Shown: in pieces, positions 78 to 26,245 of the stretch | Layout of the letters: each line of letters opens with the position of its first letter | Numbering within the stretch: position 1 is the first letter of the stretch | Origin: Bacteroidales bacterium | GTDB taxonomy: Bacteria > Bacteroidota > Bacteroidia > Bacteroidales > UBA932 | Direction: 5' to 3' | DNA: 64,000 bases | NCBI GenBank assembly: GCA_017398125.1 | Contig: JAFQHE010000007.1 | Coordinates: forward strand, 13,186-77,185 | The notes under the pieces: generated by a model | Databases searched by the model: none | Told to the model about the DNA's origin: nothing | What the model saw: the letters and a program-made list of their open reading frames with translations, nothing else | Translations under genes and position numbers: made by a program

Positions 78-806
78 ATGAAATATGCACTAGTAACAGG
101 CGGATCAAGAGGCTTGGGAAGAGCTGTCTGCCTCCAACTGGCAGCCGAAGGTGTTCCAGTAATCATAAATTATCAGTCAAACAGGAGTGCGGCGGAAGAG
201 GTGCTTGCACAGATTACAGAGAGGGGTGGTAAGGCTGAGTTGTTGCAGTTTGATGTGGCTGACATCAATTCGGTAGACAGTGCCCTTGTGGATTGGGAGA
301 GCAAACATCCTGATGATTATATTGCAATTTTGGTGAACAATGCCGGAATCAGAGAGGATAATCTGATGATTTTCATGCAGAACGAGCAGTGGGATAGAGT
401 CATTAATGTTACAGTAAACGGCTTTTTCTATGTTACAAGAAGGTTGCTTAAGAGCATGATGACTAAGAGATTCGGAAGAATTATCAATATGGCGTCGCTG
501 TCGGGATTGAAAGGTATGCCCGGACAGACAAACTACTCTGCGGCAAAGGCTGCGCTTATTGGTGCAACAAAGGCTTTGGCACAGGAGGTCGCTCCGAGAA
601 AAGTTACAGTAAACGCTGTTGCTCCAGGTTTTATTGAGACCGATATGACAAAGGATCTTGATATGGATTCCCTTAAGAAACTTGTTCCTGTGGGCAGATT
701 CGGAAAACCTGAAGAGGTGGCGGAGCTTGTATGTTTTCTTGCATCTGAAAAATCATCTTACATTACAGGTGAGGTGATCTCAATTAATGGTGGTTTGTAT
801 ACATAA
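78..806 (+). CDS. fabG: 3-oxoacyl-ACP reductase (classical SDR; cluster ketoreductase, FabG-like)
   Basis: 242-aa ORF with TGGSRGLG Rossmann motif, NNAG and YSAAK (YxxxK) catalytic motif. First gene of the co-directional block. Confidence 0.9.
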   Translation: MKYALVTGGSRGLGRAVCLQLAAEGVPVIINYQSNRSAAEEVLAQITERGGKAELLQFDVADINSVDSALVDWESKHPDDYIAILVNNAGIREDNLMIFMQNEQWDRVINVTVNGFFYVTRRLLKSMMTKRFGRIINMASLSGLKGMPGQTNYSAAKAALIGATKALAQEVAPRKVTVNAVAPGFIETDMTKDLDMDSLKKLVPVGRFGKPEEVAELVCFLASEKSSYITGEVISINGGLYT

Positions 807-813
807 TCTTCTT

Positions 814-2037
814 ATGGGTAGACGCGTAGTTATAACAGGTATGGGAATTTGGTCCTGTCTTGGAACTGATGTAGAGCAAGTCAAGGACTCTTTGTATAAC
901 GGAAAGTCAGGTATCGGACTTCAGAAAGAGAGACTTGACTATGGTTACAGGTCCGGTTTGACAGGTGTTGTGGAGAGACCAAAACTTAAAGGATTGATTG
1001 ATAGGCATATCAGGTCTGGAATGTCTGAAGAGTCGGAGTATGCGTACATGGCCAGCCGACAGGCATTTGAGCAGGCTGGAATTGATGAAGCATTTTTGTC
1101 GGAGAAGGAGGTAGGGTTGATTTTTGGAAATGATTCTTCGGCACAGGCTGTCATAGAGTCTGCCAAAGTGATGGAGGAGAAGAGGGACTCTGCTCTTATT
1201 GGATATGGCGCCGTATTCAAATCAATGAACTCTACCGTAAATATGAATTTGAGTACCATCTTCAAGACCAAGGGGGTAAATTTTACAGTCAGTGCAGCTT
1301 GTGCAAGCGGATCACACTCTATAGGTCTGGCATACCTCTTCATCAAACAGGGAATGCAGGATGTGGTTCTGTGTGGTGGAGCTCAGGAGACCAATTACTA
1401 TTCAATGGCAACTTTTGATGCATTGTCGGCATTCTCTGTGAGAATGGATGAGCCGGCCAAGGCTTCAAGGCCTTTTGACGCTTCAAGAGATGGACTTATT
1501 CCAAGTGGAGGTGCTGCGGCTCTGGTTCTTGAGGATTATGACCATGCTGTGGCAAGAGGGGCAAATATTCTTGCTGAGGTTGTGGGATATGGTTTTTCAT
1601 CCAATGGAGGAGGCATATCACAGCCGAGTGACGAAGGCTCTTTTGTTGCAATGTCAAGAGCTATCGCAGATGCCGGCATTACAGCAGATGATATAGATTA
1701 TGTAAATGCGCATGCCACCTCCACCAAACAGGGTGATATGTTTGAAGCTATTGCTTTGGATCGTCTTTTCAATGGAAAGAAGGCGTTGATAAGCTCCACA
1801 AAATCAATGACCGGTCATGAGTGCTGGATGGCTGGTGCCAGTGAGATAGTCTATTCCTTGATTATGATGCACAACAGTTTTGTTGCGCCAAACATAAATT
1901 TTGAAGCACCTGATGAGTTTTCAAAGAATCTTAATCTGGCTACAAAAACTATTGATAAAGAGATAGATATTGTGCTTTCAAACTCTTTTGGATTTGGAGG
2001 AACAAACAGTGCTTTAGTTATTAGAAAATTTAAATGA
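814..2037 (+). CDS. beta-ketoacyl-ACP synthase (KAS I/II type, elongating)
   Basis: ORF 787-2037; the ATG at 814 (MGRRVVITGMG) lies 8 nt after the fabG stop. Active-site Cys in SAACASGSH, His in NAHATST and TGHECW, C-terminal NSFGFGGTN. Confidence 0.9.
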   Translation: MGRRVVITGMGIWSCLGTDVEQVKDSLYNGKSGIGLQKERLDYGYRSGLTGVVERPKLKGLIDRHIRSGMSEESEYAYMASRQAFEQAGIDEAFLSEKEVGLIFGNDSSAQAVIESAKVMEEKRDSALIGYGAVFKSMNSTVNMNLSTIFKTKGVNFTVSAACASGSHSIGLAYLFIKQGMQDVVLCGGAQETNYYSMATFDALSAFSVRMDEPAKASRPFDASRDGLIPSGGAAALVLEDYDHAVARGANILAEVVGYGFSSNGGGISQPSDEGSFVAMSRAIADAGITADDIDYVNAHATSTKQGDMFEAIALDRLFNGKKALISSTKSMTGHECWMAGASEIVYSLIMMHNSFVAPNINFEAPDEFSKNLNLATKTIDKEIDIVLSNSFGFGGTNSALVIRKFK

Positions 2038-2043
2038 TACATT

Positions 2044-3405
2044 ATGAAATCTAAGGTTTTAGCTATTCTGTTTGCACTATTGTTGGTTAGTGTTTCATCT
2101 TTTGCCGGTAATATTACAGTGATTTCCGGTGATTTGTCTGTAGTAAGCAACCGTTCGATAACTGCAAAAGTGGTCTTTGATTATACAGATCTTATTCTTG
2201 AAGGCAAGCCCTATATGGAGCATCTGCAGTCAAAAGGTCATGATTTTGTAAGGGATTGGCCTATGGAGTCTGTGGCAAGTGAGACATACTTTATCAAGTG
2301 CTGGAATAAGGACAATAAGGATGGTATGCAGATTTCTTCAACTGAGAATAATGGATACATGATGTATTTTCATGTCAAAAAGATGCACATGGGAAGTGGT
2401 GCCGCCTCAATGCTTGTAGGTTTTGGAGCTGGAGGAGCGAGTATGTCGGGAGTAATGTACATTTTCAAAGATATGAATCCTATACCGGTTCTGACTGTTG
2501 AAATAAATGACCAGACAGGTCGTAGCGGTATGACTGAACTTGTAAGAAGAACCGATCTTTATGGCGAGTTGGCAGAGGATCTTGTGAAGTCAATAATGAA
2601 GACAAACAAATCCAAGGTGAGACCGTCAACCACACCTGTTCAGGTGCCGGCCTTTAATATGGCATCATCTGAAGCTCCGGTACAGACCGTTGCCCCTGTT
2701 GCATCGGCCTCCGCTGCATCAGCTTCGGTTCAACAAAATGGAGCGCAGGAAGTTCCAGTACAACAGACTGTTTACCCTGCTGAGGCACCTGCAGCAAATA
2801 CAACTGTTCAAGCAGTACAGGTTCCACAGAATAGCCAGACATTTGAGACTTTTGAGCAGGCCAAAGGCGTTCCGGCCACACTTATAAATGCAGAATCGCA
2901 TTTGGAATTGGGCAGAAAAGGTGATGCCGGTAATGTTGATGAACTTGCGGGGGAGAAACGCATCAGCCTTTATATTGATTACAGGGATGCAATCTTTGAC
3001 AACAAGGGGCTTGAAGACTTTATTGAATATATGGAGTCAGCCGCAGATGACAGGGATCGTGATCCCAATTTCAGAAACAATTGGGAAAGCAAGCATAAAA
3101 ATACTTTGGCACTTGCATTTATTGAGGAGGCAAACGGCAAGTTGTCAAACAAAGACCTTTATGTTACTCTGACAACAAAACAGGGCTGCAAATATTCTGT
3201 GAAAGTGGTAGTTGCCAAATTTGATGACGACGGCAATAATGTATGCGACTGTCTTGTTGTGAGAACTGAGACCGGTGATGTTATTGCGCATTACCGTCTT
3301 GAGGCGAAAGGTGGCAAATTCGGTGAGTATATAGGACTTTTGGAGCAGGGACTTGCCTCTGCAGGAGAAGCCTTCGGAGAATGGTTGGCAGATGAATTGG
3401 ACTAA
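2044..3405 (+). CDS. uncharacterised secreted protein, two related domains joined by a P/A/Q/V-rich linker
   Basis: 453-aa ORF with N-terminal signal peptide (MKSKVLAILFALLLVSVSSFA). The N-terminal (about res 22-190) and C-terminal (about res 290-453) halves share motifs (VVFDYTDLILEGK vs LYIDYRDAIFDNK). No catalytic motif recognised. Confidence 0.6.
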   Translation: MKSKVLAILFALLLVSVSSFAGNITVISGDLSVVSNRSITAKVVFDYTDLILEGKPYMEHLQSKGHDFVRDWPMESVASETYFIKCWNKDNKDGMQISSTENNGYMMYFHVKKMHMGSGAASMLVGFGAGGASMSGVMYIFKDMNPIPVLTVEINDQTGRSGMTELVRRTDLYGELAEDLVKSIMKTNKSKVRPSTTPVQVPAFNMASSEAPVQTVAPVASASAASASVQQNGAQEVPVQQTVYPAEAPAANTTVQAVQVPQNSQTFETFEQAKGVPATLINAESHLELGRKGDAGNVDELAGEKRISLYIDYRDAIFDNKGLEDFIEYMESAADDRDRDPNFRNNWESKHKNTLALAFIEEANGKLSNKDLYVTLTTKQGCKYSVKVVVAKFDDDGNNVCDCLVVRTETGDVIAHYRLEAKGGKFGEYIGLLEQGLASAGEAFGEWLADELD

Positions 3406-3417
3406 ACTTTAAACTAT

Positions 3418-4512
3418 ATGAAACTATTTCCAGCATTAAACGAAAAATATACTAAGGAGCAGTGTTCTGCCAAAGAGGCACAAAGGCTTGCCCAGTTCAT
3501 AGCTTTTGGCCCTGTGATTTTCCAGGCATCAAGACTGATGGTGAAATTTGGAATATTGCAGATGTTGAGGGAGAGCGACAATGGACTGACTGAGAATGAG
3601 ATTGTATCAAAAACAGGGTTGTCCCGGTATGCCGTGAAGTGTCTGTTGGAGGCCTCTTTGAGTATAGGTACTGTAATTATTGACCCGCTGACCGACAAAT
3701 ACAGCATTACAAAGACCGGTTGGTTTCTTCTTACTGATCCGTCGGTGAAGGTAAACCTTGATTTTAACCATGATGTCAATTATATAGGATGGTTCCACCT
3801 TGAGGAGTCGCTTGTAAATGGCAAACCTGAGGGTTTGAACCATTTCGGTGATTGGCCTACCATATATGAGGGACTCTCTTCCCTCCCTGCGGATGTGCAA
3901 AAAAGCTGGTTTGGATTTGACCATTTCTATTCTGACAACTCTTTCAGACAGGCTTTGGAAATAGTCTTCAGCTATAATGTGAAGGAGCTTATTGATGTAG
4001 GCGGAAATACGGGAAGATGGGCATTGCAGTGTGTCGGTTACAACAAGGATGTGAATGTTACAATACTTGATTTGCCTCAACAGCTGGCAATGATGAAGGA
4101 GCAGACAGCATCGCAGCCCGGAGCAGAGAGAATTTCGGGATTTCCAATCAATCTCCTTGATGACAGCCAAAAATTCCCGAAGGAGCGCATGTATGATGCC
4201 ATTTGGATGAGCCAGTTCCTTGATTGTTTTGGCGAAGATGAGATTGTAAGCATTTTGAGTAGGGCGAAGGAGGCGATGAATCCAAACACAAAACTCTTCA
4301 TTATGGAGACATTATGGGACAGACAGAAATTTGAAACAAGTGCGCTTTGCCTTACATTGACCAGCCTCTATTTTACAGCCCTTGCAAATGGAAACAGCAA
4401 AATGTACAATTCTGAGGATATGGAGCGGCTTGTTGTAAAGGCCGGATTGAAGGTTGAAAATATACATGATAATTTGGGCTGGGGACACAGCATTATGGTT
4501 TGTTCATTATAG
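3418..4512 (+). CDS. class I SAM-dependent O-methyltransferase
   Basis: 364-aa ORF with SAM motif I LIDVGGNTGRWA. The N-terminal region resembles the dimerisation/winged-helix part of family-2 O-methyltransferases. Confidence 0.8.
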   Translation: MKLFPALNEKYTKEQCSAKEAQRLAQFIAFGPVIFQASRLMVKFGILQMLRESDNGLTENEIVSKTGLSRYAVKCLLEASLSIGTVIIDPLTDKYSITKTGWFLLTDPSVKVNLDFNHDVNYIGWFHLEESLVNGKPEGLNHFGDWPTIYEGLSSLPADVQKSWFGFDHFYSDNSFRQALEIVFSYNVKELIDVGGNTGRWALQCVGYNKDVNVTILDLPQQLAMMKEQTASQPGAERISGFPINLLDDSQKFPKERMYDAIWMSQFLDCFGEDEIVSILSRAKEAMNPNTKLFIMETLWDRQKFETSALCLTLTSLYFTALANGNSKMYNSEDMERLVVKAGLKVENIHDNLGWGHSIMVCSL

Positions 4513-4539
4513 TAATCAATTAATACCTGTTTTTAAGTT

Positions 4540-4782
4540 ATGAAAAGAGAAGAGATTAAAGAGATTGTAGTTTCATTTTTGCTCGAGGATCTGGAGATTG
4601 ATGAAGAAAAGATCTTTGATGATTCCCTTCTGAAGGATGATATGGGAATTGATAGCCTTGATTTCCTTGATGTAGTTGTAATTGTGGAGAGAAACTTTGG
4701 ATTCAAGATTCTTCCTGAGGAGATGGCTAATGTTAAGACACTCAAGGAATTCATTGATTATATAGATAGAAAGATCAACTAA
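4540..4782 (+). CDS. acyl carrier protein
   Basis: 80-aa acidic ORF with phosphopantetheine-attachment motif DMGIDSLDFLDVV. Confidence 0.9.
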   Translation: MKREEIKEIVVSFLLEDLEIDEEKIFDDSLLKDDMGIDSLDFLDVVVIVERNFGFKILPEEMANVKTLKEFIDYIDRKIN

Positions 4783-4792
4783 TTTTGCTGTT

Positions 4793-5680
4793 GTGGATAT
4801 AGAAAAGGAGAAAGACTGGTCAGGCAAGACCGACGGCATGCCGTGGATGCAGAGGAGTCTGATTTTTATGTTCAAATATATAAATATCAGAATTCTCTAC
4901 GCAGTTATGGCCGTTGTGGTGATGTTCTATATGGTATTTAACCATAAAGGATATATTGCCATGTACCGTTTCTTCAGGAAAAGGTTCTGTTTTTCCCCTG
5001 TAAAGGCCTTTTTCAATGTCTACATGAACCACTATAAGTTCGGACAGATAATTCTTGACAGATTTGCCTTTTATGCCGGCAAGAGGTTTGATATGACCAC
5101 TGTAGGAAATGACAATTTCTCCAACCTTATGAAAGGTGAAGATGGTTTCATAATGTTGAGCTCGCATGTTGGCAACTATGAGTTGTGCGGCTATCACTTG
5201 AAAGCAGATACAAAAAAGATATATGCTCTTGTTTTTGCCGGTGAAACTGAGACTGTCATGAAGAACAGGTCAAAGATGTTCGAAGGTCACAATATAAACA
5301 TGATTCCTGTGATGAGTGACATGTCGCATCTTTTTGCTGTCAACAACGCTCTAAGTGACGGCAATGTCGTAAGTATGCCGGGTGACAGGGTTTTTGGCTC
5401 GCAGAAATCAATTTCATGCAAATTCTTTGGAGAGAGTGCAAAATTCCCGTATGGCCCCTTTGCAACAGCGGTACAGAGGGAGTTGCCAATGTTACCAGTC
5501 TTTGTAATGAAGGAGAGTTGCAAAAGCTACAGGATATATGTCCATAAGATAGATTACCCTCAAGAGGGAAAAAGAGCGGAGAAAGCGGCCTTTATGGCGC
5601 AGGAGTTTGCTTCCCTGCTTGAAACGACTTTGAAGTCCTATCCTACGCAGTGGTTCAACTATTATGATTTTTGGAGTTAG
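4793..5680 (+). CDS. LpxL/HtrB-family lysophospholipid (lauroyl-type) acyltransferase
   Basis: 295-aa ORF (GTG at 4793; alternative ATG at 4838). N-terminal TM helix and an SSHVGNYE (HX4E) motif typical of the lipid A-type acyltransferase family. Confidence 0.7.
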   Translation: MDIEKEKDWSGKTDGMPWMQRSLIFMFKYINIRILYAVMAVVVMFYMVFNHKGYIAMYRFFRKRFCFSPVKAFFNVYMNHYKFGQIILDRFAFYAGKRFDMTTVGNDNFSNLMKGEDGFIMLSSHVGNYELCGYHLKADTKKIYALVFAGETETVMKNRSKMFEGHNINMIPVMSDMSHLFAVNNALSDGNVVSMPGDRVFGSQKSISCKFFGESAKFPYGPFATAVQRELPMLPVFVMKESCKSYRIYVHKIDYPQEGKRAEKAAFMAQEFASLLETTLKSYPTQWFNYYDFWS

Positions 5681-5684
5681 TGTT

Positions 5685-6119
5685 ATGAATTTTGAGCAGA
5701 TAGACATACTTGAGCTTTTGCCACAGCGTCCTCCATTTGTTATGGTTGATACACTGCTGCATTATGATGATGTAAAGTGCGTTACCTCACTGCTTGTCAA
5801 GGAGGATAATATTTTTGTTGAGAATGGCCATCTTTCATCGTCAGGCCTGATAGAGAATATTGCCCAGACCTGCGCTGCAAGAATGGGATACATCAACCAT
5901 TTTTTGAACAAGGAAACAATAAAGCTCGGTTTTATTGGAGCAATAAAGAATTTGAAGATAGAATCTCTGCCAAAGGTCAATGATACAATCAGAACTTCAA
6001 TAGAGATTGTTGAAGAGGTATTCCAGATGACTCTGGTCAATGCTGTGATCGAGTTGGATAACAAGATAATTGTCAGTGCAGAGATGAAGATTGCATTGAG
6101 TGATATTGATTCAAAATAG
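5685..6119 (+). CDS. hotdog-fold 3-hydroxyacyl-ACP dehydratase (FabZ/ApeI-like)
   Basis: ORF 5664-6119; the ATG at 5685 follows the upstream stop (5680). LLPQRPPFVMVD motif typical of FabA/FabZ-like dehydratases. Confidence 0.75.
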   Translation: MNFEQIDILELLPQRPPFVMVDTLLHYDDVKCVTSLLVKEDNIFVENGHLSSSGLIENIAQTCAARMGYINHFLNKETIKLGFIGAIKNLKIESLPKVNDTIRTSIEIVEEVFQMTLVNAVIELDNKIIVSAEMKIALSDIDSK

Positions 6120-6126: not shown

Positions 6127-6555
6127 ATGTGCAAGGACAAGAAACTGATGGCCTCTGTTGAGTTCACTCCGCGTTTCAGCGAAGTGGATTCCATGAATTT
6201 TGTGTGGCATGGATCATACTCGCTCTATTTTGAAGATGCGCGTGAGGCTTTCGGCAAAAAATATGGAATAGGCTATCTTGATATATTTTCACAAGGCTAT
6301 TATGCTCCGCTCATTGATCTCAATTTTCAGTACAAGCGGCCGCTTGTCTATGGAATGCCTTGCAGAGTGGATATTTATTATAGGCCAACAGAGGCTGCAA
6401 AAATGATATTTGATTACGAGATATATAGTCTCAATGACAATACACTGTGCTCTACAGGACACTCTGTTCAGGTATTCATGAACAGAAATTACGAACTTAT
6501 GTGGATCAATCCTCCATTTTATGAGGAGTGGAAGAGAAAAATGGGATTGCTATGA
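6127..6555 (+). CDS. 4HBT/YbgC-type acyl-(ACP/CoA) thioesterase
   Basis: ORF 6100-6555; ATG at 6127 lies after the upstream stop. RFSEVDSMNFVWHGSYSLYFEDAREAF matches the 4-hydroxybenzoyl-CoA-thioesterase hotdog signature. Confidence 0.75.
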   Translation: MCKDKKLMASVEFTPRFSEVDSMNFVWHGSYSLYFEDAREAFGKKYGIGYLDIFSQGYYAPLIDLNFQYKRPLVYGMPCRVDIYYRPTEAAKMIFDYEIYSLNDNTLCSTGHSVQVFMNRNYELMWINPPFYEEWKRKMGLL

Positions 6556-7697
6556 TTGTAAAGGTAGCCGACAATATATTTTCACCGATTGGGTATACTA
6601 CATCTGAAAATTTCAGGAGGGTGAAGGAGGGACATTCTGCTTTGGCCCTGCATGAGGGGTTGTGGGATATTCCTGAACCCTTTATGGCCTCCCTTTTTCC
6701 CGACAGAAGTGAGATTGATCTCAAATTCAGTGGAATATGTGCTGGCAGAAGAGAAGATTATACCTTCTTTGAAAAAATATCAATATTGTCGGCGTATGAT
6801 GCAATTTCACGCACTGACATTGATCCCTCTTCAGACAAGGTGTTGTTTATCCTCTCAACTACCAAGGGAAATGTAGATCTCCTCAATATTGACTTGAATA
6901 TTGTGGATGAAGTTCTCCCAAGCCATTCGGCAGAGCGCATTGCATCATTCTTTGGCAACAGCAACTCTCCAATAACCGTTTCAAATGCATGTACCTCGGG
7001 TGCGTGTGCCCAACTGACAGCTTACAGGATGTTGGAGGCTGGTCTCTATGACCATGCTGTTGTGGTTGGAGCCGATGTGCAGAGCAAGTTCATTGTTACT
7101 GGCTTCCAATCATTCAAGGCCCTTTCAAAGGAGAGGTGCAGGCCTTTTGATGCGCAGAGAGAGGGTTTGAATTTGGGTGAGGCTGCTGCCACAATAATAT
7201 TTTCAAGGAGGGAGAATCAGAGTGCAGGTGAGAAGGAGTGGGTACTGCAGAGAGGTGCAATCCACAATGATGCCAACCATATATCAGGCCCGTCGCGTAC
7301 AGGTGAGGGGTGTTACCTCTGCCTGAAAGATATTCTCAATGTGGCTGATATGGATAATATAGCCCTGATCAATGCTCATGGAACGGCAACTCCATACAAT
7401 GACGAGATGGAGTCTATTGCAATAGACAGGGCCGGTCTGTCCCATGTGCCGGTAAATGGTTACAAGGGCATATATGGCCATACAATGGGTGCAGCTGGTG
7501 TTCTGGAGACAATAATATCACAGAAATCTATAGAGGAGAATCTGCTTCTTTCTACAGCCGGCTTCGGCGAGAGAGGAGTAAGTAGAGATATAAATATAGT
7601 TAAGGGAAATTCTGTTACTCAGAAGAGCTCTTTTATCAAGATGCTGTCGGGATTTGGCGGATGTAATGTTGCACTGCTTTTTAAAATGGGGGAGTGA
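6552..7697 (+). CDS. beta-ketoacyl-ACP synthase
   Basis: ORF 6528-7697; the ATG at 6552 overlaps the upstream TGA (ATGA). Cys in VSNACTSGA, His in NAHGTATP and YGHTMGAAG. Confidence 0.9.
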   Translation: MIVKVADNIFSPIGYTTSENFRRVKEGHSALALHEGLWDIPEPFMASLFPDRSEIDLKFSGICAGRREDYTFFEKISILSAYDAISRTDIDPSSDKVLFILSTTKGNVDLLNIDLNIVDEVLPSHSAERIASFFGNSNSPITVSNACTSGACAQLTAYRMLEAGLYDHAVVVGADVQSKFIVTGFQSFKALSKERCRPFDAQREGLNLGEAAATIIFSRRENQSAGEKEWVLQRGAIHNDANHISGPSRTGEGCYLCLKDILNVADMDNIALINAHGTATPYNDEMESIAIDRAGLSHVPVNGYKGIYGHTMGAAGVLETIISQKSIEENLLLSTAGFGERGVSRDINIVKGNSVTQKSSFIKMLSGFGGCNVALLFKMGE

Positions 7698-14091: not shown

Positions 14092-14104
14092 TCGGGTTTA
14101 TCTT

Positions 14105-19762: not shown

Positions 19763-21044
19763 CATTGAATTTTTACCGGCAAGTGAGATAAAACAGATTC
19801 AGGAATCTCTGTTGAAAGATGCTCTGCAATATCTGAATGCAAATTCACGTTATTATCAGAGGGTCTTCTCAAAATATGAGATTGACATTGACAAGATAAC
19901 CACACTTGAGGATCTTGTGAAGATCCCTTTTACTGAGAAAAAGGATCTGCAGCTCTATAATGAGGATTTTCTATGTTGTCCAAAGTCCAAGATAGTTGAT
20001 TATATAACAACATCCGGAACATTGGGTGATCCTGTAACATTTGGCTGTACAGACAAGGATCTCGACAGACTTGCATTCAATGAGCAGAAATCATTTGCTT
20101 GTGCTGGAGTAAAGCCTGGTGATATTGTCCAGCTTATGACAACATTGGACAAACGTTTTATGGCAGGTCTTGCCTACTTTTTGGGTATCAGAAAATTGGG
20201 GGCCAGTGTCATTAGAGTCGGCAACGGTATTCCTGAACTTCAGTGGGATACCATAAAGAGGATCAAGCCTGATACCATAATGTGTGTGCCATCTTTCATA
20301 TTGAGACTTATCCAATATGCCGAGGATAACGGAATAGACTACAAAAACAGCTCTATAAGAAGAATTATCGGTATAGGAGAGGGGTTGAGGGAGCAGAACT
20401 TTGAACTCAACCTGCTCGGACGAAAGATTAAGGAGAAGTGGGATGTAGATCTTTTTGCAACATATTCATCTACTGAGATGGGGGCAACTTTTTCGGAATG
20501 TGAGTATGGATGCGGCGGACATGTCCATCCGGAGCTAATTATTGTAGAAATTATTGGTGATGACAATCTTCCTGTTCCCGACGGAGAGTATGGTGAAGTT
20601 GTGATAACTTCGTTGGGTGTTGAGGGTATGCCCCTGTTGAGATTCCGTACAGGAGATATTGCTGCCAAAAAGGTGGAGCAGTGCAGGTGTGGCAGAAATT
20701 CATACAGGCTTACACCACTTGTGGGCAGAAAGAACAACATGATCAAGCTTAAAGGAACAACTCTATATCCTCCGGCAATTAATGATGTGCTTGACAATGC
20801 CGAGTATGTGGCCAACTATGTCATTTATGTGAAGAACAGTGATTCCGGCACAGATGAGGTGGTAGTGAAGATTGGTCTCAAATACAAGACAGAGTTTGAT
20901 GCAATCAAGGATCTCAAGGACCGTTTCAGATCAAGGATAAGGGTAGCTCCAATAATTGAGACAGAGAGTGTGGAGGAGATACAGAAGATAAACTTCCCTG
21001 CAAAGAGCAGAAAGCCTGTAAAATTCATTGACCTAAGAAGATAA
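19749..21044 (+). CDS. adenylate-forming ligase, phenylacetate-CoA ligase (PaaK)/F390-synthetase family
   Basis: ORF 19656-21044; ATG at 19749 (MKENDIEFL) overlaps the upstream gene by 14 nt. TTSGTLGDP, YSSTEMG, FRTGDI and GRKNNMIKLKGTTLYP adenylation motifs. Confidence 0.8.
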   Translation: MKENDIEFLPASEIKQIQESLLKDALQYLNANSRYYQRVFSKYEIDIDKITTLEDLVKIPFTEKKDLQLYNEDFLCCPKSKIVDYITTSGTLGDPVTFGCTDKDLDRLAFNEQKSFACAGVKPGDIVQLMTTLDKRFMAGLAYFLGIRKLGASVIRVGNGIPELQWDTIKRIKPDTIMCVPSFILRLIQYAEDNGIDYKNSSIRRIIGIGEGLREQNFELNLLGRKIKEKWDVDLFATYSSTEMGATFSECEYGCGGHVHPELIIVEIIGDDNLPVPDGEYGEVVITSLGVEGMPLLRFRTGDIAAKKVEQCRCGRNSYRLTPLVGRKNNMIKLKGTTLYPPAINDVLDNAEYVANYVIYVKNSDSGTDEVVVKIGLKYKTEFDAIKDLKDRFRSRIRVAPIIETESVEEIQKINFPAKSRKPVKFIDLRR

Positions 21045-21056: not shown

Positions 21057-22193
21057 ATGAGAAACGGCAAATTTGATGATATACGTCCATATTATGACGA
21101 GGAAATACCCTCTGCAATGAGCAGAATTCTTCAGAGTGAGCACTTCCCGCTTCTGGCATCTTACGTTTACCCCGGAAAGAATATCGATGAGTTAAAAGCA
21201 CTTATCGGAACTTTCAAAACTATTGCTGATTTTCAGTTGGAGGTTATGAGGTGTGTGAATGAGCAGGTTATAGCAAGAAGTTCAACATCATTCACATACA
21301 GCGGAATAGACAAACTTGATCCTGATAAAAAATATCTTTTTATATCAAATCACAGGGATATAATGCTTGACTCGTCGCTTTTGCAATACATTTTGTACAA
21401 GAACGGCCACGATACTTCTGAGATTACATTTGGAGCCAATCTTATGAGCGGCCAGCTCGTAATAGACATAGGCAGGTCAAACAAGATGTTCAGGGTAGAA
21501 AGGGGTGGAAACATGAAGGAGTTCTATAAGGCATCCCTCCATTTGAGTGAGTACATCAGGTATGTAATTACAGAAAAGGGCCAATCTGTATGGATTGCCC
21601 AGAGAAACGGACGTACTAAAGATGGTAATGATCTGACTGACCAGGGTATTATAAAGATGTTCTGCATGAGCGGTTCGGGAGACAAGGTGAAGGATCTGGT
21701 AGATTTGAATATAGTGCCGGTTTCTGTATCATACGAGTGGGAGCCATGTGATATTCTCAAGGCCGTTGAATTATATTCGTCAAGAAAGGAGAAGTATGTG
21801 AAGAGGCCTGGTGAGGATCTCAACAGTATTCTTACTGGTATCCTTCAGCCTAAGGGGGCAATCCATTTTTCATTCGGAACACCTATAACTGAAGAGCAGC
21901 TTGCTGCATATTCTGACTCTCCAAGCAGCGAATATCACAAGAGTGTTGCAAAACTGTTTGATGATCAGATTATAAGTAACTTCAGGCTCTCTTCAAACAA
22001 TTACATTGCCTATGATATGCTTACAGGTGCTGATGAGTTTGCCGCAAAATATACTCCTCAGCAGAAAGCTATGTTTGAGAAAAATATGTCAAAACTTGGT
22101 GAGTATAATGTTGATGAGCCAGATGTGCTTAAAGAGATATTCCTTGGCATTTATGCCAATCCGGTAGAGAATGCAAAGAAGCTAAACAGATAG
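21057..22193 (+). CDS. PlsC/GPAT-family glycerolipid acyltransferase
   Basis: 378-aa ORF with ISNHRDIMLD (HX4D) and IAQRNGRTKDG motifs. Confidence 0.75.
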   Translation: MRNGKFDDIRPYYDEEIPSAMSRILQSEHFPLLASYVYPGKNIDELKALIGTFKTIADFQLEVMRCVNEQVIARSSTSFTYSGIDKLDPDKKYLFISNHRDIMLDSSLLQYILYKNGHDTSEITFGANLMSGQLVIDIGRSNKMFRVERGGNMKEFYKASLHLSEYIRYVITEKGQSVWIAQRNGRTKDGNDLTDQGIIKMFCMSGSGDKVKDLVDLNIVPVSVSYEWEPCDILKAVELYSSRKEKYVKRPGEDLNSILTGILQPKGAIHFSFGTPITEEQLAAYSDSPSSEYHKSVAKLFDDQIISNFRLSSNNYIAYDMLTGADEFAAKYTPQQKAMFEKNMSKLGEYNVDEPDVLKEIFLGIYANPVENAKKLNR

Positions 22194-22196
22194 CGG

Positions 22197-25100
22197 ATGA
22201 GTGGTCTGTTCATTAAAATATATGAAAAGTTTACCTGTAACAGGAGACTCTATTTCGCCATATTGGCAATGGTCTTCGCAATCCTTGTATTGCGCACACT
22301 GACATTGCAATACAGCGAGGATATATATGATTTTCTGCCACTTGACAAGAACCATCAGAAGTCACTTTCGGTATATCAGAATATCACATCATCAGACAAG
22401 GTAGTTGTAATTTTTGAGCAGAAAGGGGAGGAGACAGACCCAGATTATATTGTCGGGGCAATGGAGGAGTTCAATGGAATTCTCCTTGCAAAAGATTCTT
22501 TGGGCTATTTTGATGAGCCACTCAAGCGTTTTGACTACTCAACAATAAATGCTACAACTGATGTCATTTATGACAACATACCATTTTGTCTCTCGGAGGA
22601 GGATTATGACAGATTGGATACTCTCATTACCAGGGAGTTTATAAGAGACCGGATTGCGCAGGCAAAGAAATTCCTTATGATGCCTACAAGTACCTTTTTG
22701 AGTTCAAGCCTCAAGAGGGATCCATTGTCAATTTTTCTTCCGGCTGTGCAGCAGCTCCAGAAATTTGGTGGAGATACCGAGTTCGAAATCTATGATGGGT
22801 ATATCTTTTCTCCCGACAAAAGAATCTCCATTGGAATGGTTACATCTCCCTTTGGAGGCAGTGAAACGAGCAACAACACAGCTCTTGTGGCCTTCCTCAA
22901 TGAAGTGGTAGAGGATGTGCAGAAGGAGTATGATGAGATCTCTGTGCACATAACGGGCGCTCCTGTAATTGCTGTGGGTAATGCTTCACAGATCAAGCGA
23001 GACAGCTTTATTGCTGTGCTTATGTCCATTATTCTGATACTTGCGCTTCTGCTCTACTCGTTCCGAAGATGGAGGACACTTTTTTTCATATCAATCTCAA
23101 TATTTTTCGGATGGCTCTTTGCCATGGCTGGCCTGTCGCTATTTGGCGGTAATGTATCGATGATCGTTCTTGGAATAGCATCGGTCATTATAGGAATAGC
23201 AGTAAACTATCCGCTCCATCTGATTGCACATCTCAACCATACGCCATCAATTAAGGAATCATTGAAGGAGATTGTTTCGCCCTTGCTGATAGGAAACATA
23301 ACAACAGTAGGAGCCTTTCTCTCGCTGGTTCCGATGAACTCAATAGCACTCAGGGATTTGGGTATTTTCAGCTCATTTATGCTGATTGGCTCGATAATCT
23401 TTGTGCTGATATTTCTTCCTCCTTTGCTCAAGGAGAACAAAGCTGTGAAAGAACGGTACATTTTGCCCTCAGTGAGCAAATTCCAGTTCGATTCAAGAGG
23501 GTGGATCATAATTCCTGTGCTGGCAATTACATTGGTTTTAGGATACTTTGGCAGATATACCAGGTTCAATGTAGAAATGCAGAGTATCAACTACATGACT
23601 CCAGAGCAGAGGGCCGATTTCAAAAAATTGAATCTTCTCAAAAATCCGGGTGAGTATACCCAGCTTTATGTGGTTTCTGAGGGTCACACCCTTGATGAGG
23701 CACTTAAGGCCAAGGAAGAGGGGCAGGGATATATAAATCAGATTGCCGGACTATGTGATTCAATTGCTGTAAAAAGCATTTCCGGGGTAGTTCCTTCTCT
23801 TGCGCTGCAGGCCAAAAGAGTTGAGCGGTGGAACAGGTTGATGAGTGAAAAAGGGGAGCTTTTGGGTGGCTGCCTTAAGGAGGAACTTATTTCAAATGGA
23901 TTTAAAATCAAGGCATTTGCTCCGTTTTTTGCAACTATTGAAAAGAATTACAAGTGTGGGGCTTTGCACGAACTTTATAATCTGGAACTCTTCAACGGCC
24001 ATATAAGCAGAGATTCTGTCTCTGTGGCAGTAGTTGATATATTGTCGGTGCCGGACTCTTTGACACATATCGCCAAGGAGATTCTCAAATCTGATACCTC
24101 ATCCTTCCACTTTGATGAGAAGAGCCTCAGCAGCAAGATTGCCCAAACACTTTCAGATGAATTTGACTATATATGTCTTGCATGCGGTATAATAGTATTC
24201 ATCTTCCTCTGGCTCTCTTTCGGCCGTCTTGAATTGAGTATAATGGCATTCCTTCCAATGGCAATAAGCTGGGTCTGGATCCTCGGCATAATGGGTATTC
24301 TGGGGATAGAGTTCAACATAGTCAACATTATTCTTGCCACATTTATATTCGGACAGGGAGATGACTATACAATCTTTATAACCGAGGGTATCATTTATGA
24401 ATACACTTATAGGAAAAAGATACTTGCATCCTATAAAAACAGCATAATTCTCTCAGCCCTGATAATGTTTGCCGGAATTGGGACGCTCATATTTGCAAAA
24501 CATCCGGCCTTGAGATCTCTCGCTGAGGTTACAATAGTGGGAATGATTACAGTTGTTGTAATATCGTATATTGTTCCACCAATAATCTTCCGTTTCCTTA
24601 CTCATAAGGATGGAGAGCCGAGACTGGTACCATTGACTATTGCCCATTTCATAAGAGTTGCCATAGTCTATCCGCTTATGCCACTTGCCTTCTTATTTGA
24701 GGGTAGGTCTGGCTTACGTGTGGCAAGGTTGCTATGCAGGATGATTCCAGGTGTAAAGTTCAGCTTTCCTGACCGTAGTAAAAATGCAGGATGTGTTGTT
24801 CTATACAGGAAGAGCTCTTCTTTAGACAAACTACTCCTTAAGGCAACATATACAGATCCGCTGCTTGTTGGAATTGATAGTTCCACAACAGTAGCTCAGG
24901 CCTTGGAAAATGTTGCAGATATGGCAGTAAGATATTCTGCTGCAGTTGAGTTTGTCTCTCTGAATGGTGCTGAATTTGTGTCACCGTCAGGCTCATTCTT
25001 TATAAACGGGGGAGAGGTGAGGATTATACGCAGGGAGGTTCATGTTGGCGCGGATGATTTTTCGGCTGAATCTGCAGAGAGACTCTTGCATGAGATGGAA

Positions 25101-25463
25101 GAGTGTCAGGCAACGCCTGAGGTATATAAGGATTATATAGCTACAAGGTATCTTTATAAAGGGCATAATTTCTGTGCGAGTGTAGGAAGAAATCTTAGAA
25201 AAAGCGGATGCTATAGTGAATTTTTGGCAAGCTGTTCTGCGTCAGGTGACATTCTGGCCCGAAGTTCAGGTCTGGGAGAGGCGGCCATTTTGCTGGCAAA
25301 AGTTTACAGAGACAGAAAGATATACCTTTTTGTTGAAGATGAGGATTTGAGGAACCTCACTTTCAATTTGTCACACCTTCCAATGAATTTATTCCTTGTA
25401 AGATCATTTGAAGAGTTTGATACTCTTCTCTCTTCCGGAGAGTTTACCCAATTGTCGGTTTAA
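22197..25463 (+). CDS. MMPL/RND-type lipid exporter with C-terminal pseudo-acyltransferase and methyltransferase-like extension
   Basis: 1088-aa ORF with two multi-helix TM bundles separated by large soluble loops, and an IFGQGDDYTIF motif. The roughly 290-aa C-terminal tail is paralogous to the acyltransferase half of 12589-14091 but has YRKSSSLD in place of NHQSHLD. It ends with a G-x-G (SGLGEAAILLA) Rossmann-like segment. Confidence 0.8.
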   Translation: MSGLFIKIYEKFTCNRRLYFAILAMVFAILVLRTLTLQYSEDIYDFLPLDKNHQKSLSVYQNITSSDKVVVIFEQKGEETDPDYIVGAMEEFNGILLAKDSLGYFDEPLKRFDYSTINATTDVIYDNIPFCLSEEDYDRLDTLITREFIRDRIAQAKKFLMMPTSTFLSSSLKRDPLSIFLPAVQQLQKFGGDTEFEIYDGYIFSPDKRISIGMVTSPFGGSETSNNTALVAFLNEVVEDVQKEYDEISVHITGAPVIAVGNASQIKRDSFIAVLMSIILILALLLYSFRRWRTLFFISISIFFGWLFAMAGLSLFGGNVSMIVLGIASVIIGIAVNYPLHLIAHLNHTPSIKESLKEIVSPLLIGNITTVGAFLSLVPMNSIALRDLGIFSSFMLIGSIIFVLIFLPPLLKENKAVKERYILPSVSKFQFDSRGWIIIPVLAITLVLGYFGRYTRFNVEMQSINYMTPEQRADFKKLNLLKNPGEYTQLYVVSEGHTLDEALKAKEEGQGYINQIAGLCDSIAVKSISGVVPSLALQAKRVERWNRLMSEKGELLGGCLKEELISNGFKIKAFAPFFATIEKNYKCGALHELYNLELFNGHISRDSVSVAVVDILSVPDSLTHIAKEILKSDTSSFHFDEKSLSSKIAQTLSDEFDYICLACGIIVFIFLWLSFGRLELSIMAFLPMAISWVWILGIMGILGIEFNIVNIILATFIFGQGDDYTIFITEGIIYEYTYRKKILASYKNSIILSALIMFAGIGTLIFAKHPALRSLAEVTIVGMITVVVISYIVPPIIFRFLTHKDGEPRLVPLTIAHFIRVAIVYPLMPLAFLFEGRSGLRVARLLCRMIPGVKFSFPDRSKNAGCVVLYRKSSSLDKLLLKATYTDPLLVGIDSSTTVAQALENVADMAVRYSAAVEFVSLNGAEFVSPSGSFFINGGEVRIIRREVHVGADDFSAESAERLLHEMEECQATPEVYKDYIATRYLYKGHNFCASVGRNLRKSGCYSEFLASCSASGDILARSSGLGEAAILLAKVYRDRKIYLFVEDEDLRNLTFNLSHLPMNLFLVRSFEEFDTLLSSGEFTQLSV

Positions 25464-25474
25464 CTGAATAAGAT

Positions 25475-26245
25475 ATGAAAAAGACAGTTTTATTTATGCT
25501 TTCTCTCATTGCTACAGTCTTGCTGTATGGCCGTGATGAATTTAAGAGAGGCGCTTTTGTCTCCGGAACAACTGGAGATACTCTATTGTACCGGTATCTT
25601 GAGCCACAGGAGTTAAAAAAGGGCAAAAAGTATCCGCTTGTAATATTTCTCCACGGATCGGGGGAGAGGGGATCAGATAATCAGGCACAGTTGTTTCATG
25701 GCAGCGGACAATTCATAAATCCTGTAAACAGGGAAGAGTTTCCTGCATACGTGCTCTTTCCACAATGTCCCGAAGGCGTGCCTGGTGCATATATGCCACG
25801 TCTTGAGACATTGGTTCCTGCTGATATGCCATTGAATCCGCCTGTAGCTCCTATTGTACTCACCTTGATGGATCTGATAAACTCCTATATTGCCATGCCT
25901 GAGGTAGATGACAGACGGGTTTATATAATGGGAATATCAATGGGTGGAATAGCAACTTACGATATAGTTTCGAGGTATCCGGAACTATTTGCTGCAGCTG
26001 TGCCTATATGCGGTTCTGTCAATCCGCAGAGGCTGAAAAGCACCAAGGGGGTGGCTTGGCGAATTTTTCACGGGGATTCGGATGCCGCTGTTACAGTGGA
26101 GGGTTCGCGCGAAGCTTACAAAGCTTTGAGAAGTTTTGGATATGATGTAGAGTATATTGAGTTTGCAGGATGCACACACAACAGCTGGAATCCTGCCTTC
26201 AACTATCCTGACTTTATGAAGTGGTTATTCAAGCAGAAGAGATAA
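25475..26245 (+). CDS. secreted alpha/beta hydrolase (carboxylesterase/phospholipase-like)
   Basis: 256-aa ORF with signal peptide, FLHGSGERG, nucleophile elbow GISMGG and HGDSD. Lies 11 nt after the MMPL gene and before the first terminator. Confidence 0.75.
   Translation: MKKTVLFMLSLIATVLLYGRDEFKRGAFVSGTTGDTLLYRYLEPQELKKGKKYPLVIFLHGSGERGSDNQAQLFHGSGQFINPVNREEFPAYVLFPQCPEGVPGAYMPRLETLVPADMPLNPPVAPIVLTLMDLINSYIAMPEVDDRRVYIMGISMGGIATYDIVSRYPELFAAAVPICGSVNPQRLKSTKGVAWRIFHGDSDAAVTVEGSREAYKALRSFGYDVEYIEFAGCTHNSWNPAFNYPDFMKWLFKQKR

Follow-up and report, generated by a model that had tools for sequence, protein, structure and literature searches.

The 64,000-nucleotide stretch of Bacteroidales DNA analysed here (the window) carries, from 78 to 26245, 27 open reading frames, all on the + strand and tiled end to end. 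With start codons taken as those called on identical metagenome contigs, the distances between neighbors span -53 to +58 nt, and the 58-nt maximum falls between the second of two CrtI-like genes and a radical-SAM gene. The co-directional block of an initial annotation, with its maximal gap of 58 nt, is borne out in this way, as is its account of the gene content by Pfam and NCBIfam profile matches. The overlaps it described are present at seven junctions, two of them being of the ATGA type (4 nt). The cluster does not start at 78, as had been thought: positions 2–73 (+ strand) already encode the last 23 codons and the stop of an upstream lyase gene, flxA, which is cut by the window edge and whose stop is 4 nt upstream of the first gene of the block. 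Once flxA, just outside the window, is counted, the cluster is one of 28 genes. At the other end a hairpin had been placed at 26314–26345 as the cluster's terminator. The hairpin is real (26312–26347, - strand, 16-bp stem, between convergent genes), but the T-run lies on its - strand side, which makes it the terminator of the tryptophanase-like (tnaA-like) gene that converges on the cluster (26368–27816, - strand), or at best a bidirectional one.

The supposed lack of a tyrosine ammonia-lyase was an artefact of that same window edge. Positions 1–806 are identical (100%, 806 nt) to 9924–10729 of metagenome contig L004, on which the full flxA (L004:8479–9996), of which the window itself holds the 3′ end alone, could be read. 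Its 505-aa product matches PF00221 and, at 857.7 bits, clears the NCBIfam equivalog FlxA_rubin_TAL (cutoff 700). Well downstream, a PaaK-like 4-coumarate-CoA ligase (19749–21044) clears FlxY_rubin (699.8 bits, cutoff 520); it is present in 73 of 80 related loci with a median identity of 74.8%, and the Chitinophaga pinensis FlxY enzyme has been characterised (PMC3992019), as has FlxA from that species. On these equivalog matches, FlxA would deaminate tyrosine to 4-coumarate, which FlxY would then activate. Starter supply is pertinent to whether the locus might be a strict aryl-polyene (APE) cluster of the E. coli/Xenorhabdus type, with 4-hydroxybenzoate as its primer and only a surface likeness to flexirubin loci. 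The core is indeed common to both (KS/CLF, two ACPs, KR, ApeI/ApeP-like pair, thioesterase and methyltransferase, together with LolA, MMPL and GT/AT genes), but with a lyase gene immediately upstream in the same operon, a ligase that clears the FlxY equivalog, and flexirubin models at the top of the NCBIfam matches with generic ones lower, this reading is very improbable.

For building the chain there are, after the SDR ketoreductase FlxB (78–806; FlxB_rubin_SDR 410.9 bits, cutoff 340), three ketosynthases with Pfam ketosynthase domains. They occupy the FlxC (814–2037; ketoacyl-synt N and C domains; ACASG, HATST and GH), FlxI (6552–7697; NACTSG, HGTAT and GH) and FlxN (8577–9785; TACSS, HGTGT and GH) positions, and the Cys, HxTxT and GH motifs in all three confirm their assignment as Cys-His-His enzymes. 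Two Cys-less ketosynthase-like partners had also been proposed, and the motifs are indeed absent from both. The one at the FlxO position (9739–10812), lacking the active-site Cys, is chain-length-factor-like and matches PF13723 (Ketoacyl-synt_2), with its homologue being fused to the preceding ketosynthase in the related loci L090, L092 and L093. The other, a 198-aa protein at the FlxL position (7699–8295), has no Pfam family and no ketosynthase catalytic motifs, so that its likeness to a ketosynthase is one of position only; it is conserved in 36 related loci, and FlxL is annotated ‘condensing enzyme’ in the published C. pinensis flxA-flxY table. Two ACPs (PF00550) are at the FlxD (4540–4782) and FlxM (8309–8566) positions, the latter very conserved (median identity 83.7% in 40 loci). 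Of the two hotdog dehydratases, one is ApeP-like (FlxF position, 5685–6119; a precomputed PF22817 match and weak FabZ matches) and one ApeI-like (FlxS position, 12228–12599; PF07977 and PF22818), matches which tie them to APE systems. A 4HBT thioesterase (FlxH position, 6127–6555; PF13279 and PF03061) and a FlxJ-family SAM methyltransferase of the Methyltransf_2 fold (3418–4512; FlxJ_fam_MTase 600.8 bits, cutoff 560) complete the set. The methyltransferase is a probable ring methylase; the ring methyl of flexirubin derives from methionine (PMC3992019).

Neither Pfam nor NCBIfam models detected an enoyl reductase, FabD or FabH among the cluster proteins. Given that absence and the families present, the three ketosynthases, their two non-catalytic partners, the two ACPs, FlxB and the ApeP/ApeI-like pair would lengthen the starter in repeated rounds that omit enoyl reduction, yielding an ACP-bound aryl polyene, possibly along with a second conjugated acyl chain, and FlxJ would methylate the ring. 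A locus for housekeeping or alternative FAS II, or for carotenoids, that makes no specialised polyene would fit the CrtI-family genes and the fact that FlxB also scores above the cutoff of one FabG model (297.9 versus 273 bits). It is scarcely credible, however, with all three ketosynthases far below the FabF/FabB cutoffs, with FabI and FabK missing as well as FabD and FabH, with no CrtB, CrtE or cyclase, and with flexirubin-specific equivalogs outscoring the generic models. The original designation of the cluster as type II PKS-like, for a lipid of the aryl-polyene/flexirubin type, thus holds, including against the housekeeping FAS II origin of which it had itself been wary.

Attachment to a lipid and export are also provided for. 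There is an LpxL-like lipid acyltransferase at the FlxE position (4793–5680; PF03279), a FlxT-like fusion of a GT2 glycosyltransferase to a PlsC-type acyltransferase (12589–14091; PF00535 and PF01553) whose GT2 domain resembles polyprenyl-phosphate sugar synthases/transferases (PpgS, ArnC), and a PlsC-like acyltransferase (21057–22193; PF01553) that corresponds to the N-terminal portion of FlxU, and which is in 64 of the 80 related loci and in L090 is fused to the MMPL protein. The exporter part of FlxU has its equivalent in that MMPL/RND-type protein (22197–25463; PF03176, HpnN-like matches), with a median identity of 34.2% across related loci. A small EamA/ArnE-ArnF-like membrane protein (10861–11178; PF00892; NCBIfam ArnF and ArnE matches at 1e-14, sub-cutoff), whose gene is in 53 related loci, is a candidate lipid-linked sugar flippase. 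The periplasmic carrier LolA2 (11186–11827; LolA2_flexi 220.1 bits, cutoff 125; median identity 29.7% across related loci) is followed by a LolB2-like protein with a signal peptide (11799–12215), which at 39.1 bits falls short of the LolB2_flexi cutoff (60). A weakly DUF4410-like secreted protein of 453 aa (2044–3405), with a clear signal peptide, has homologues in only 59 clusters, PF14366 occurring in some of them, and is found at the same position in L092 and L093; the duplicated domain formerly seen in it lacks statistical support (BLASTP between the halves, E = 5.8). The solved APE lipid is APE-GalNAc-phosphate-glycerol (10.1101/2020.12.19.423268) and, by analogy with Xenorhabdus APE lipids, the three acyltransferase proteins and the ArnE/F-like flippase may place the polyene on a sugar-phosphate-glycerolipid anchor, with LolA2, LolB2 and MMPL presumably conveying the product to the outer membrane.

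How close is this to flexirubin? Five flexirubin equivalogs (FlxA, FlxB, FlxJ, LolA2_flexi and FlxY) are above their curated cutoffs, and the order, FlxA-B-C-(x)-J-D-E-F-H-I-L-M-N-O-(x)-Q-R-S-T-V-V-(rSAM, orphan, esterase)-Y-U, follows that of flxA-flxY as published for C. pinensis, FlxJ alone being placed differently. The two CrtI/CrtISO-family flavoproteins (14039–15595, PF01593, with NCBIfam CrtD, CrtI and carotenoid isomerase matches all sub-cutoff; and 15592–17085, with CrtI-family matches) are FlxV-like, and by family and position would be FlxV orthologues; 38 related loci have two such genes and 39 have one. They had been considered foreign to any characterised core, and the lack of DarA/DarB to betoken a non-textbook flexirubin locus. 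However, a CrtI/RetSat-like FlxV is canonical in flexirubin loci, and in C. pinensis the dar genes (Cpin_6843-6852) have a locus of their own, so neither feature argues against a flexirubin-type cluster. That split, the five equivalogs and the DarH-like BtrH_N/DUF4872 protein at the cluster end in eight related loci lend something to the idea of a textbook flexirubin, whose polyene would be joined by an ester bond to a dialkylresorcinol made by darA/darB at another genomic location, the extra genes having only a side role. Against this, FlxW, the C45 acyltransferase proposed to ligate polyene and dialkylresorcinol, which both characterised clusters have, is absent from this one (as are a halogenase, deacetylase and PPTase), and Pfam found no C45 peptidase domain in the 27 proteins or the rest of the window, which also has no DarA or DarB. 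Among the unassigned ORFs that recur in the 80 related loci, most families were judged by eye and resembled flanking housekeeping genes, and the few cluster-adjacent families scanned with Pfam included no KAS III, DarA or C45 protein. In addition, the anaerobic Bacteroidales are not known to be flexirubin-positive. While DarA/DarB and FlxW could be elsewhere in the genome, like the C. pinensis dar genes, the textbook version is unlikely.

With FlxW and DarA/DarB missing here, the gene content makes an APE-glycophospholipid the more likely end product than a dialkylresorcinol ester (true flexirubin). We are rather confident that the locus belongs to the flexirubin (flx) branch of the APE lipid pathway, as its version in gut Bacteroidales, operating broadly as proposed above and below; the ArnC/PpgS-like GT2 domain, accompanied by the ArnE/F-like flippase, is among the features that support this reading.

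What is truly non-canonical and conserved, in comparison with flexirubin loci, is the radical-SAM enzyme, a 119-aa orphan, an esterase (Est1), the ArnE/F-like flippase, the DUF4410-like protein and the lack of FlxW. The radical-SAM enzyme (17144–18427; PF04055; CxxxCxxC, as GCRFSCYPC) had been described as a B12-radical SAM enzyme: its radical-SAM identity is secure, but the match of its N-terminal domain to the B12-binding family PF02310 is weak and sub-threshold (24.6 versus 32.1 bits), so that cobalamin dependence is suggested by architecture. Present in all 80 related loci at 85–96% identity (median 87.9%), it is the best-conserved protein of the cluster. Its model has a Rossmann-like N-terminal domain, with low confidence (pLDDT 65), and its Foldseek neighbors are AprD4 (the nearest), MgmA, TsrM and CysS; AprD4 is not known to depend on cobalamin. 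With such a model any proposed chemistry is a guess, our best but tentative one being that it C-methylates an unactivated carbon of an intermediate carried as a thioester or on a lipid, with radical C-C coupling, cyclisation or dehydration as alternatives. Always paired with it (80/80 loci) is the cytosolic 119-aa orphan (18463–18822), which has three invariant Cys, 1344 homologue clusters, in none of which is there a Pfam family or a name, and a confident AF2 model with no fold match in the PDB. Est1, an exported alpha/beta esterase (18845–19762; PF20434; signal peptide; BD-FAE/carbohydrate-esterase-like, with AxeA1 and PaeX matches), is in 70 of the 80 loci. The earlier pairing of two hydrolases as non-core tailoring enzymes survives for Est1 but not for the exported alpha/beta hydrolase Est2 (25475–26245; Pfam hydrolase families), which, found in none of the 80 related loci, is lineage-specific rather than a core tailoring enzyme and a doubtful member of the cluster.

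One or two CrtI/RetSat-like flavoproteins, the class-B-type radical-SAM enzyme, its 119-aa partner and the exported esterase may together form a lineage-specific module for O2-independent modification of the polyene lipid, in the place otherwise occupied by FlxW and FlxX. Its CrtI, radical-SAM and orphan part is conserved in all 80 related Bacteroidales loci. L090, L092 and L093, from related lineages, are without FlxA and FlxY and have retained the radical-SAM module, which is thus independent of the coumarate starter.

A B. xylanisolvens cluster shares synteny with the flexirubin BGC of C. pinensis (PMC12940132) and rumen genomes have 2,800 aryl-polyene BGCs (PMC8241843); this Bacteroidales class has already been flagged by antiSMASH-based surveys and what is new here is the variant gene set. 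The literature searched yielded no characterisation of the product of the Bacteroidales version, and to that extent the initial view of an undefined product stands, even if its arguments from the lyase, dar and CrtI genes have fallen. Within this pigment-lipid cluster, the radical-SAM module is at once very conserved and unstudied.

The cluster is a run of 27 successive + strand ORFs (78-26245), as the initial annotation had it and as the ORF map bears out. With start codons taken from metagenome contigs encoding identical proteins, its genes overlap at seven junctions, by 53 nt at most, and are otherwise no more than 58 nt apart; that 58-nt gap, indeed the largest, lies directly before the radical-SAM gene (17144-18427). 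Every functional class earlier listed for the block is supported by Pfam and NCBIfam scans. Three ketosynthases have the Cys, HxTxT and GH catalytic motifs, and the proteins of 9739-10812 and 7699-8295 are without them. The internal duplication claimed for the 453-aa secreted protein (2044-3405) has no statistical support (BLASTP E = 5.8). The hairpin at 26312-26347, once taken as the terminator of the operon, is real, with a 16-bp stem; because its T-run is on the - strand side, it is foremost the terminator of a tryptophanase-like gene (26368-27816, -) that converges on the cluster, the hairpin being common to both.

A tyrosine ammonia-lyase had been reported as absent only because the window happens to be cut behind it, flxA being directly upstream. 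Public-assembly look-up of the first protein (78-806) yielded contigs reaching further upstream, on one of which (L004) positions 9924-10729 are identical to window 1-806. Window 2-73 encodes the C-terminal 23 residues of an aromatic ammonia-lyase (PF00221, 505 aa), the gene for which stops 4 nt before the first window gene. This lyase has the ASG MIO motif and scores 857.7 bits with the NCBIfam equivalog FlxA_rubin_TAL (cutoff 700). Its selectivity sites, read off the sequence without alignment to FlxA, are RSHA for the first and NQD for the second, and appear to match the combination in FlxA of Chitinophaga pinensis, where the first site is HAL-like and the second has a Gln of the TAL/PAL type (Schoner et al. 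2014, PMC3992019). Upstream of flxA (L004 5574-8299) are a 172-aa ORF without family match and a divergent histidine kinase/response regulator pair, both candidates for regulators of the operon.

With flxA restored, the kinship of the locus is plain. The flexirubin references are flxA-flxY of C. pinensis DSM 2588 (MIBiG BGC0000839) and Fjoh_1074-1110 of Flavobacterium johnsoniae (BGC0000838) (PMC3992019). Flexirubin equivalog cutoffs of NCBIfam are passed by the FlxB SDR (410.9 bits, cutoff 340) and the FlxJ methyltransferase (600.8, cutoff 560), and the LolA2_flexi model (220.1, cutoff 125) and FlxY_rubin, a 4-coumarate-CoA ligase (699.8, cutoff 520), are likewise above theirs; LolB2_flexi is matched below cutoff (39 against 60 bits). 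Common to the window and the flexirubin clusters are the FlxA TAL, FlxB, the FlxC/I/N ketosynthases with their FlxL/O partners, two ACPs, the FlxE LpxL-like acyltransferase, the FlxF/S dehydratases, the FlxH thioesterase, the FlxJ methyltransferase, LolA2/LolB2, the FlxT GT2, the FlxU acyltransferase and exporter, the FlxY ligase and a CrtI-like flavoprotein putatively of FlxV type. Gene order is almost identical: with letters for the positions of flxA-flxY it reads A-B-C-(453-aa)-J-D-E-F-H-I-L-M-N-O-(ArnE/F-like)-Q-R-S-T-V-V-(rSAM)-(119-aa)-(esterase)-Y-U(AT)-U(MMPL)-(esterase), and the two are essentially the same operon. FlxU is split here into a PlsC-like acyltransferase and an MMPL protein, which are fused in the related locus L090.

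Two arguments that had been used to set the locus apart from flexirubin clusters lose their force. The CrtI-like flavoenzymes had been placed outside the core; one such gene, FlxV, is canonical in flexirubin loci, that of F. johnsoniae included, and the two CrtI/CrtISO-family genes here are at a position equivalent to that of FlxV, the neighbour of FlxU and FlxY, a likeness of family and position. The absence of DarA and DarB, neither of which occurs within the 64-kb window, is not diagnostic, because the dar genes of C. pinensis are at a distant locus, Cpin_6843-6852. Might the genes instead belong to housekeeping FAS II? That reading is excluded: the FabF/FabB models are far under their cutoffs, and FabD, FabH and an enoyl reductase are absent; the cluster has the type II KS/CLF set with two ACPs and a hotdog dehydratase pair. 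A carotenoid locus is rejected as well, CrtB, CrtE and cyclases being absent.

What is missing and what is added are more informative. FlxW, the FlxK halogenase, the FlxP (CE4) deacetylase, the FlxX PPTase and FlxG of flexirubin clusters are not in the window cluster, the first four being in both characterised clusters. Flexirubin itself is a yellow-orange pigment with a reversible KOH colour shift, in which an aryl-octaene is esterified to a dialkylresorcinol, and FlxW is a C45-type acyltransferase to which the joining of these two parts has been ascribed as a proposal. The window has no C45 domain, whether in the cluster proteins or outside them, nor was a C45 protein found among that part of the recurrent unassigned ORFs of 80 related loci which was scanned with Pfam. 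The additions are the radical-SAM enzyme, a 119-aa cytosolic protein (18463-18822), an exported BD-FAE-type esterase (Est1, 18845-19762), the second CrtI-like gene, a small ArnE/F-like membrane protein, the secreted, weakly DUF4410-like 453-aa protein and an exported hydrolase (Est2, 25475-26245), and the host, unlike those of the reference clusters, is an anaerobic gut member of the Bacteroidales. The radical-SAM gene, the 119-aa gene and Est1 sit at the FlxW and FlxX slot of the C. pinensis order. Defined by sequence, then, the locus is a flexirubin-type cluster lacking one defining feature, FlxW. It would therefore work like a flexirubin/APE-lipid pathway but should not be filed as a flexirubin producer, FlxW being absent and the search for dar genes covering the 64-kb window. 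The Bacteroidales form of the cluster is flexirubin-derived and, in this lineage, predicted to be coumarate-primed.

The second relevant comparison is with the APE-lipid (APEL) cluster apeA-R of Xenorhabdus doucetiae and Escherichia coli CFT073 (10.1101/2020.12.19.423268; PMC8253772). On the core gene list from the first of these studies, all classes are present: apeO/R (KS), apeC (CLF), apeE/F (ACP), apeI/P (DH), apeQ (KR) and apeM (transporter), with the dehydratases matching PF22817 (ApeP-like) and PF22818 (ApeI-like). The likeness extends to the type II PKS-like KS/CLF architecture, tandem ACPs, a thioesterase, a ring methyltransferase, GT/AT lipid-assembly enzymes, a LolA-like carrier and an MMPL exporter, and the product, as in APEL, is probably a polyene esterified to a sugar-phosphate-glycerolipid. 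Unlike the window cluster, APE systems have no TAL and use a 4-hydroxyphenyl carboxylate starter via ApeH. We know of no CrtI-like enzyme, radical-SAM enzyme or ArnE/F-like flippase in them.

A scan for the radical-SAM enzyme with one genome per species gave 249 relatives, of which the 80 best come, save for a few plainly mislabelled bins, from Bacteroidales MAGs of human, rodent, horse, deer and ruminant guts. Onto these 80 loci all window proteins were mapped by tblastn. The nearest, a 'Ca. Egerieisoma sp.' MAG (L010, JAZNEW010000030.1), has 96% identity in the radical-SAM enzyme and 45-93% in the other proteins; with no match at species level, the source counts as an uncultured relative. 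NCBI places Ca. Egerieisoma under Clostridiaceae, which conflicts with the Bacteroidales gene content, and two further loci (L064 and L066) are labelled Bulleidia sp. and Clostridiales bacterium; since all three carry a typical Bacteroidales flx cluster, their bins are probably misclassified or contaminated.

All 80 loci have both the radical-SAM gene and the 119-aa gene. Upstream of the pair is one CrtI-like gene in 39 loci and two in 38; downstream are Est1 (70/80), FlxY (73/80) and the PlsC-like acyltransferase (64/80). Median identity to the window protein is 87.9% for the radical-SAM enzyme (range 85-96), followed by 83.7% for ACP2, 74.8% for FlxY, 68.6% for the 119-aa protein, 66.9% for the ketosynthase KS3 (8577-9785), 56.7% for the PlsC-like acyltransferase, 50.1% for Est1, 47.3% and 43.2% for the two CrtI-like proteins, 34.2% for MMPL and 29.7% for LolA2. 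The radical-SAM enzyme thus holds 85-96% identity across Bacteroidales families, against 25-48% for transport proteins of the same operon, and by these sequence comparisons with the system's own proteins would be its most constrained member. Such constraint is unusual for a 'tailoring' enzyme. Beyond the 80 loci, the protein database has more than 6,000 relatives of it at E < 1e-5, the best 120 all being at least 82% identical; named relatives among those listed come from Prevotellaceae, Bacteroidaceae, Parabacteroides, Mediterranea and 'Lentimicrobiaceae' MAGs, and cultured carriers are Caecibacteroides pullorum (WP_246593221.1) and Bacteroides caecigallinarum (WP_235340838.1).

Two genes at or just past the end of the cluster fare differently. 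Est2 as a core tailoring enzyme, and the tryptophanase/tyrosine-phenol-lyase-like gene as supplier of an aromatic precursor, were both considered; neither occurs in any of the 80 loci and so neither is core, the latter being convergent besides. The tryptophanase-like protein belongs to the tryptophanase/tyrosine-phenol-lyase family (PF01212) and scores 571 bits with the NCBIfam 'tryptophanase' subfamily (cutoff 285). Because it is beside the cluster in none of the 80 related loci, its adjacency to a tyrosine-derived pathway looks coincidental. Further along the window is a Bacteroidales Mfa-type fimbrial operon (28494-37860, +), with genes for a DUF3575 beta-barrel-like protein, a DUF3868/TPR protein, a Fimbrillin_C protein (572 aa), an Mfa2 anchor, a 369-aa ORF without family and a 1051-aa DUF4906 protein. 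At E <= 1e-4 Pfam gives nothing for two large ORFs (38702-41200, +, 832 aa; 52523-54271, -, 582 aa), of which the latter is directly downstream of a 1037-aa TPR-repeat protein (54271-57384, -). A tyrosine recombinase (58870-60003, +; Phage_integrase and N-terminal SAM-like domain) has the housekeeping genes gyrB, a GMP synthase fragment and bipA as neighbours; it probably resembles XerC/D and does not belong to a mobile element.

What kind of radical-SAM enzyme is it? It had been called a B12-radical SAM protein, and of that description the radical-SAM half stands: the canonical CxxxCxxC motif is there (GCRFSCYPC), and the generic superfamily model PF04055 (Radical_SAM) is passed marginally (29.9 bits, cutoff 29.5). 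The B12 half is left in doubt, the B12-binding PF02310 being sub-threshold (24.6 against 32.1 bits). Apart from PF04055 no NCBIfam or Pfam model reaches its cutoff; the best NCBIfam matches (TIGR04013, HpnJ, the ladderane-associated TIGR04072 and BchE) are all far under theirs, and the best PDB sequence match has E = 0.007. The AlphaFold2 model has a confident N-terminal Rossmann-like domain and a poor core (mean pLDDT 65); with that low-confidence core, Foldseek retrieves AprD4 (top), MgmA, MiaB, TsrM and CysS at E from 4e-9 to about 2e-5. For AprD4, MgmA, TsrM and CysS the E-values are 4e-9 to 4e-6 and sequence identity is 14-16%. An N-terminal Rossmann-like domain with a CxxxCxxC radical-SAM core is common to MgmA, TsrM, CysS and AprD4, and on the predicted model the enzyme would have class B (B12-binding-domain) architecture. 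Class B architecture includes methylases and at least one dehydratase not known to need cobalamin, and AprD4, with the same architecture, is not known to use or bind cobalamin. As a route to function, homology and structure (PDB match, low-pLDDT core, Foldseek) deliver the architecture class and nothing narrower.

For its 119-aa partner there are 1,344 homologue clusters, of which none is named or has a Pfam domain, and a profile search of 1.84 billion representative proteins found 270 relatives, nearly all stand-alone and of 100-145 aa, with the few longer ones adding only DUF6166. Three of its Cys never vary (C24, C63, C78), and two long motifs, TELYQDNPGTSVTY and ECxPxTNSKLSFY, hardly do. 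The AlphaFold2 model is confident (pLDDT 84, pTM 0.81), and Foldseek against the PDB found no fold match for it (best E = 0.13, TM <= 0.35). Pfam and NCBIfam gave no match and a PDB sequence search nothing even at E = 10; remote homology, pursued through these and the profile search, was set aside as a lead to function. One idea was that the protein binds coumarate in the manner of photoactive yellow protein (PYP), prompted by the adjacent coumarate ligase, the invariant Cys and a 'CT...FY' stretch recalling PYP; it was dropped, Foldseek against the PDB having returned no PAS/PYP match.

Clusters of the C. pullorum type and of a pig-gut lineage (L090 1-16392; L092 4416-18486; L093 7248-21308) begin with an NusG/UpxY-like antiterminator gene, not flxA, and have a KS3-partner fusion (about 599 aa) and an AT-MMPL fusion (1164 aa). 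Their tail, as seen in L090 and L091, has two acyltransferases, an ACP and a PF00501/PF13193 AMP-binding ligase in place of FlxY. The radical-SAM module and the DUF4410-like protein are kept. Because flxA and FlxY are replaced while the module stays, the gene content implies a starter unit that would vary by lineage with the same radical-SAM module. In eight related loci, though not in the window, a BtrH_N plus DUF4872 protein is at the cluster end (e.g. L079 17430-18479), of the same kind as DarH, the 'BtrH-like peptidase' encoded among the dar genes of C. pinensis. ACP-dependent acyl transfer being the activity known for BtrH-type enzymes, this protein could be the polyene-transfer enzyme in those eight loci.

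A pathway can be sketched by analogy. Curated models identify the flexirubin-type TAL, coumarate ligase, KR, methyltransferase and LolA2, and the sequence itself shows a tight operon without an enoyl reductase, in which three catalytic KSs stand with two non-catalytic partners, a pair of ACPs and a pair of hotdog dehydratases. The sketch draws on enzymes characterised from C. pinensis and on APE studies in Xenorhabdus and E. coli (PMC3992019; 10.1101/2020.12.19.423268). Tyrosine would be converted to 4-coumarate and on to an activated coumaroyl unit, iterative KS/KR/DH cycles would yield an ACP-bound aryl polyene, FlxJ would methylate the ring and the polyene would pass to a lipid anchor. The likeness of the GT2 domain to polyprenyl-phosphate sugar synthases (PpgS, ArnC) and of the small membrane protein to ArnE/ArnF, together with the CE4 deacetylase that the canonical flexirubin cluster has where Arn has ArnD, suggests an Arn-like logic of sugar-phosphate-lipid synthesis, de-acylation and flipping; such logic fits the solved APE lipid, APE-GalNAc-phosphate-glycerol (10.1101/2020.12.19.423268). 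Est1 has a signal peptide and therefore acts after export; speculatively, it may stand in for the missing deacetylase. LolA2, LolB2 and MMPL would then bring the lipid to the outer membrane.

The CrtI-like enzymes and the radical-SAM enzyme with its partner would modify the polyene or its carrier. CysS is a class B enzyme that acts on a carrier-bound aryl thioester. Because of that precedent and the class B architecture, C-methylation is our best guess for the radical-SAM chemistry, a guess falling somewhat short of an even chance, and radical coupling, cyclisation or dehydration may be the answer instead. More broadly, and with rather more doubt than confidence, we entertain the possibility that the radical-SAM enzyme, the 119-aa partner and the CrtI-like flavoproteins modify the conjugated polyene chain by radical chemistry that needs no O2, be it C-methylation, cross-linking or cyclisation. 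If so, the product would be an outer-membrane polyene lipid of a structurally new kind, restricted to anaerobic Bacteroidales of gut and rumen, abundant but unseen, and the enzyme would stand for a radical-SAM subfamily, itself new, that acts together with a likewise new family of accessory proteins.

The class as such is already flagged by genome mining. Bacteroides xylanisolvens pBGC-12, an antiSMASH arylpolyene BGC syntenic to the C. pinensis flexirubin BGC, is a BGC of a persistent coloniser (PMC12940132); in rumen genomes aryl-polyene clusters make up 2,800 of 14,814 BGCs, with the Prevotella ones expressed (PMC8241843); and five classes of Bacteroidetes are covered by what has been named a 'flexirubin gene cluster cloud' (PMC9248904). 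The window cluster probably belongs to the same family as these antiSMASH-predicted gut and rumen Bacteroidales arylpolyene BGCs, which are abundant and expressed in gut and rumen, the reports being genome-mining calls only (PMC12940132, PMC8241843). Open-access papers and preprints contained no mention that we found of the radical-SAM module or of a product from anaerobic Bacteroidales, and nothing specific on a characterised Bacteroidales product or on radical-SAM enzymes in flexirubin or APE clusters.

Of the new points, the one that lends itself best to testing is how extremely the radical-SAM enzyme and its orphan partner are conserved, and it is this enzyme with its invariant 119-aa companion that is most worth taking to the bench. 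Few BGCs of gut and rumen Bacteroidales are as common as aryl-polyene clusters, and solving the chemistry of the module would identify a potentially abundant host-facing membrane lipid together with a new radical-SAM activity.
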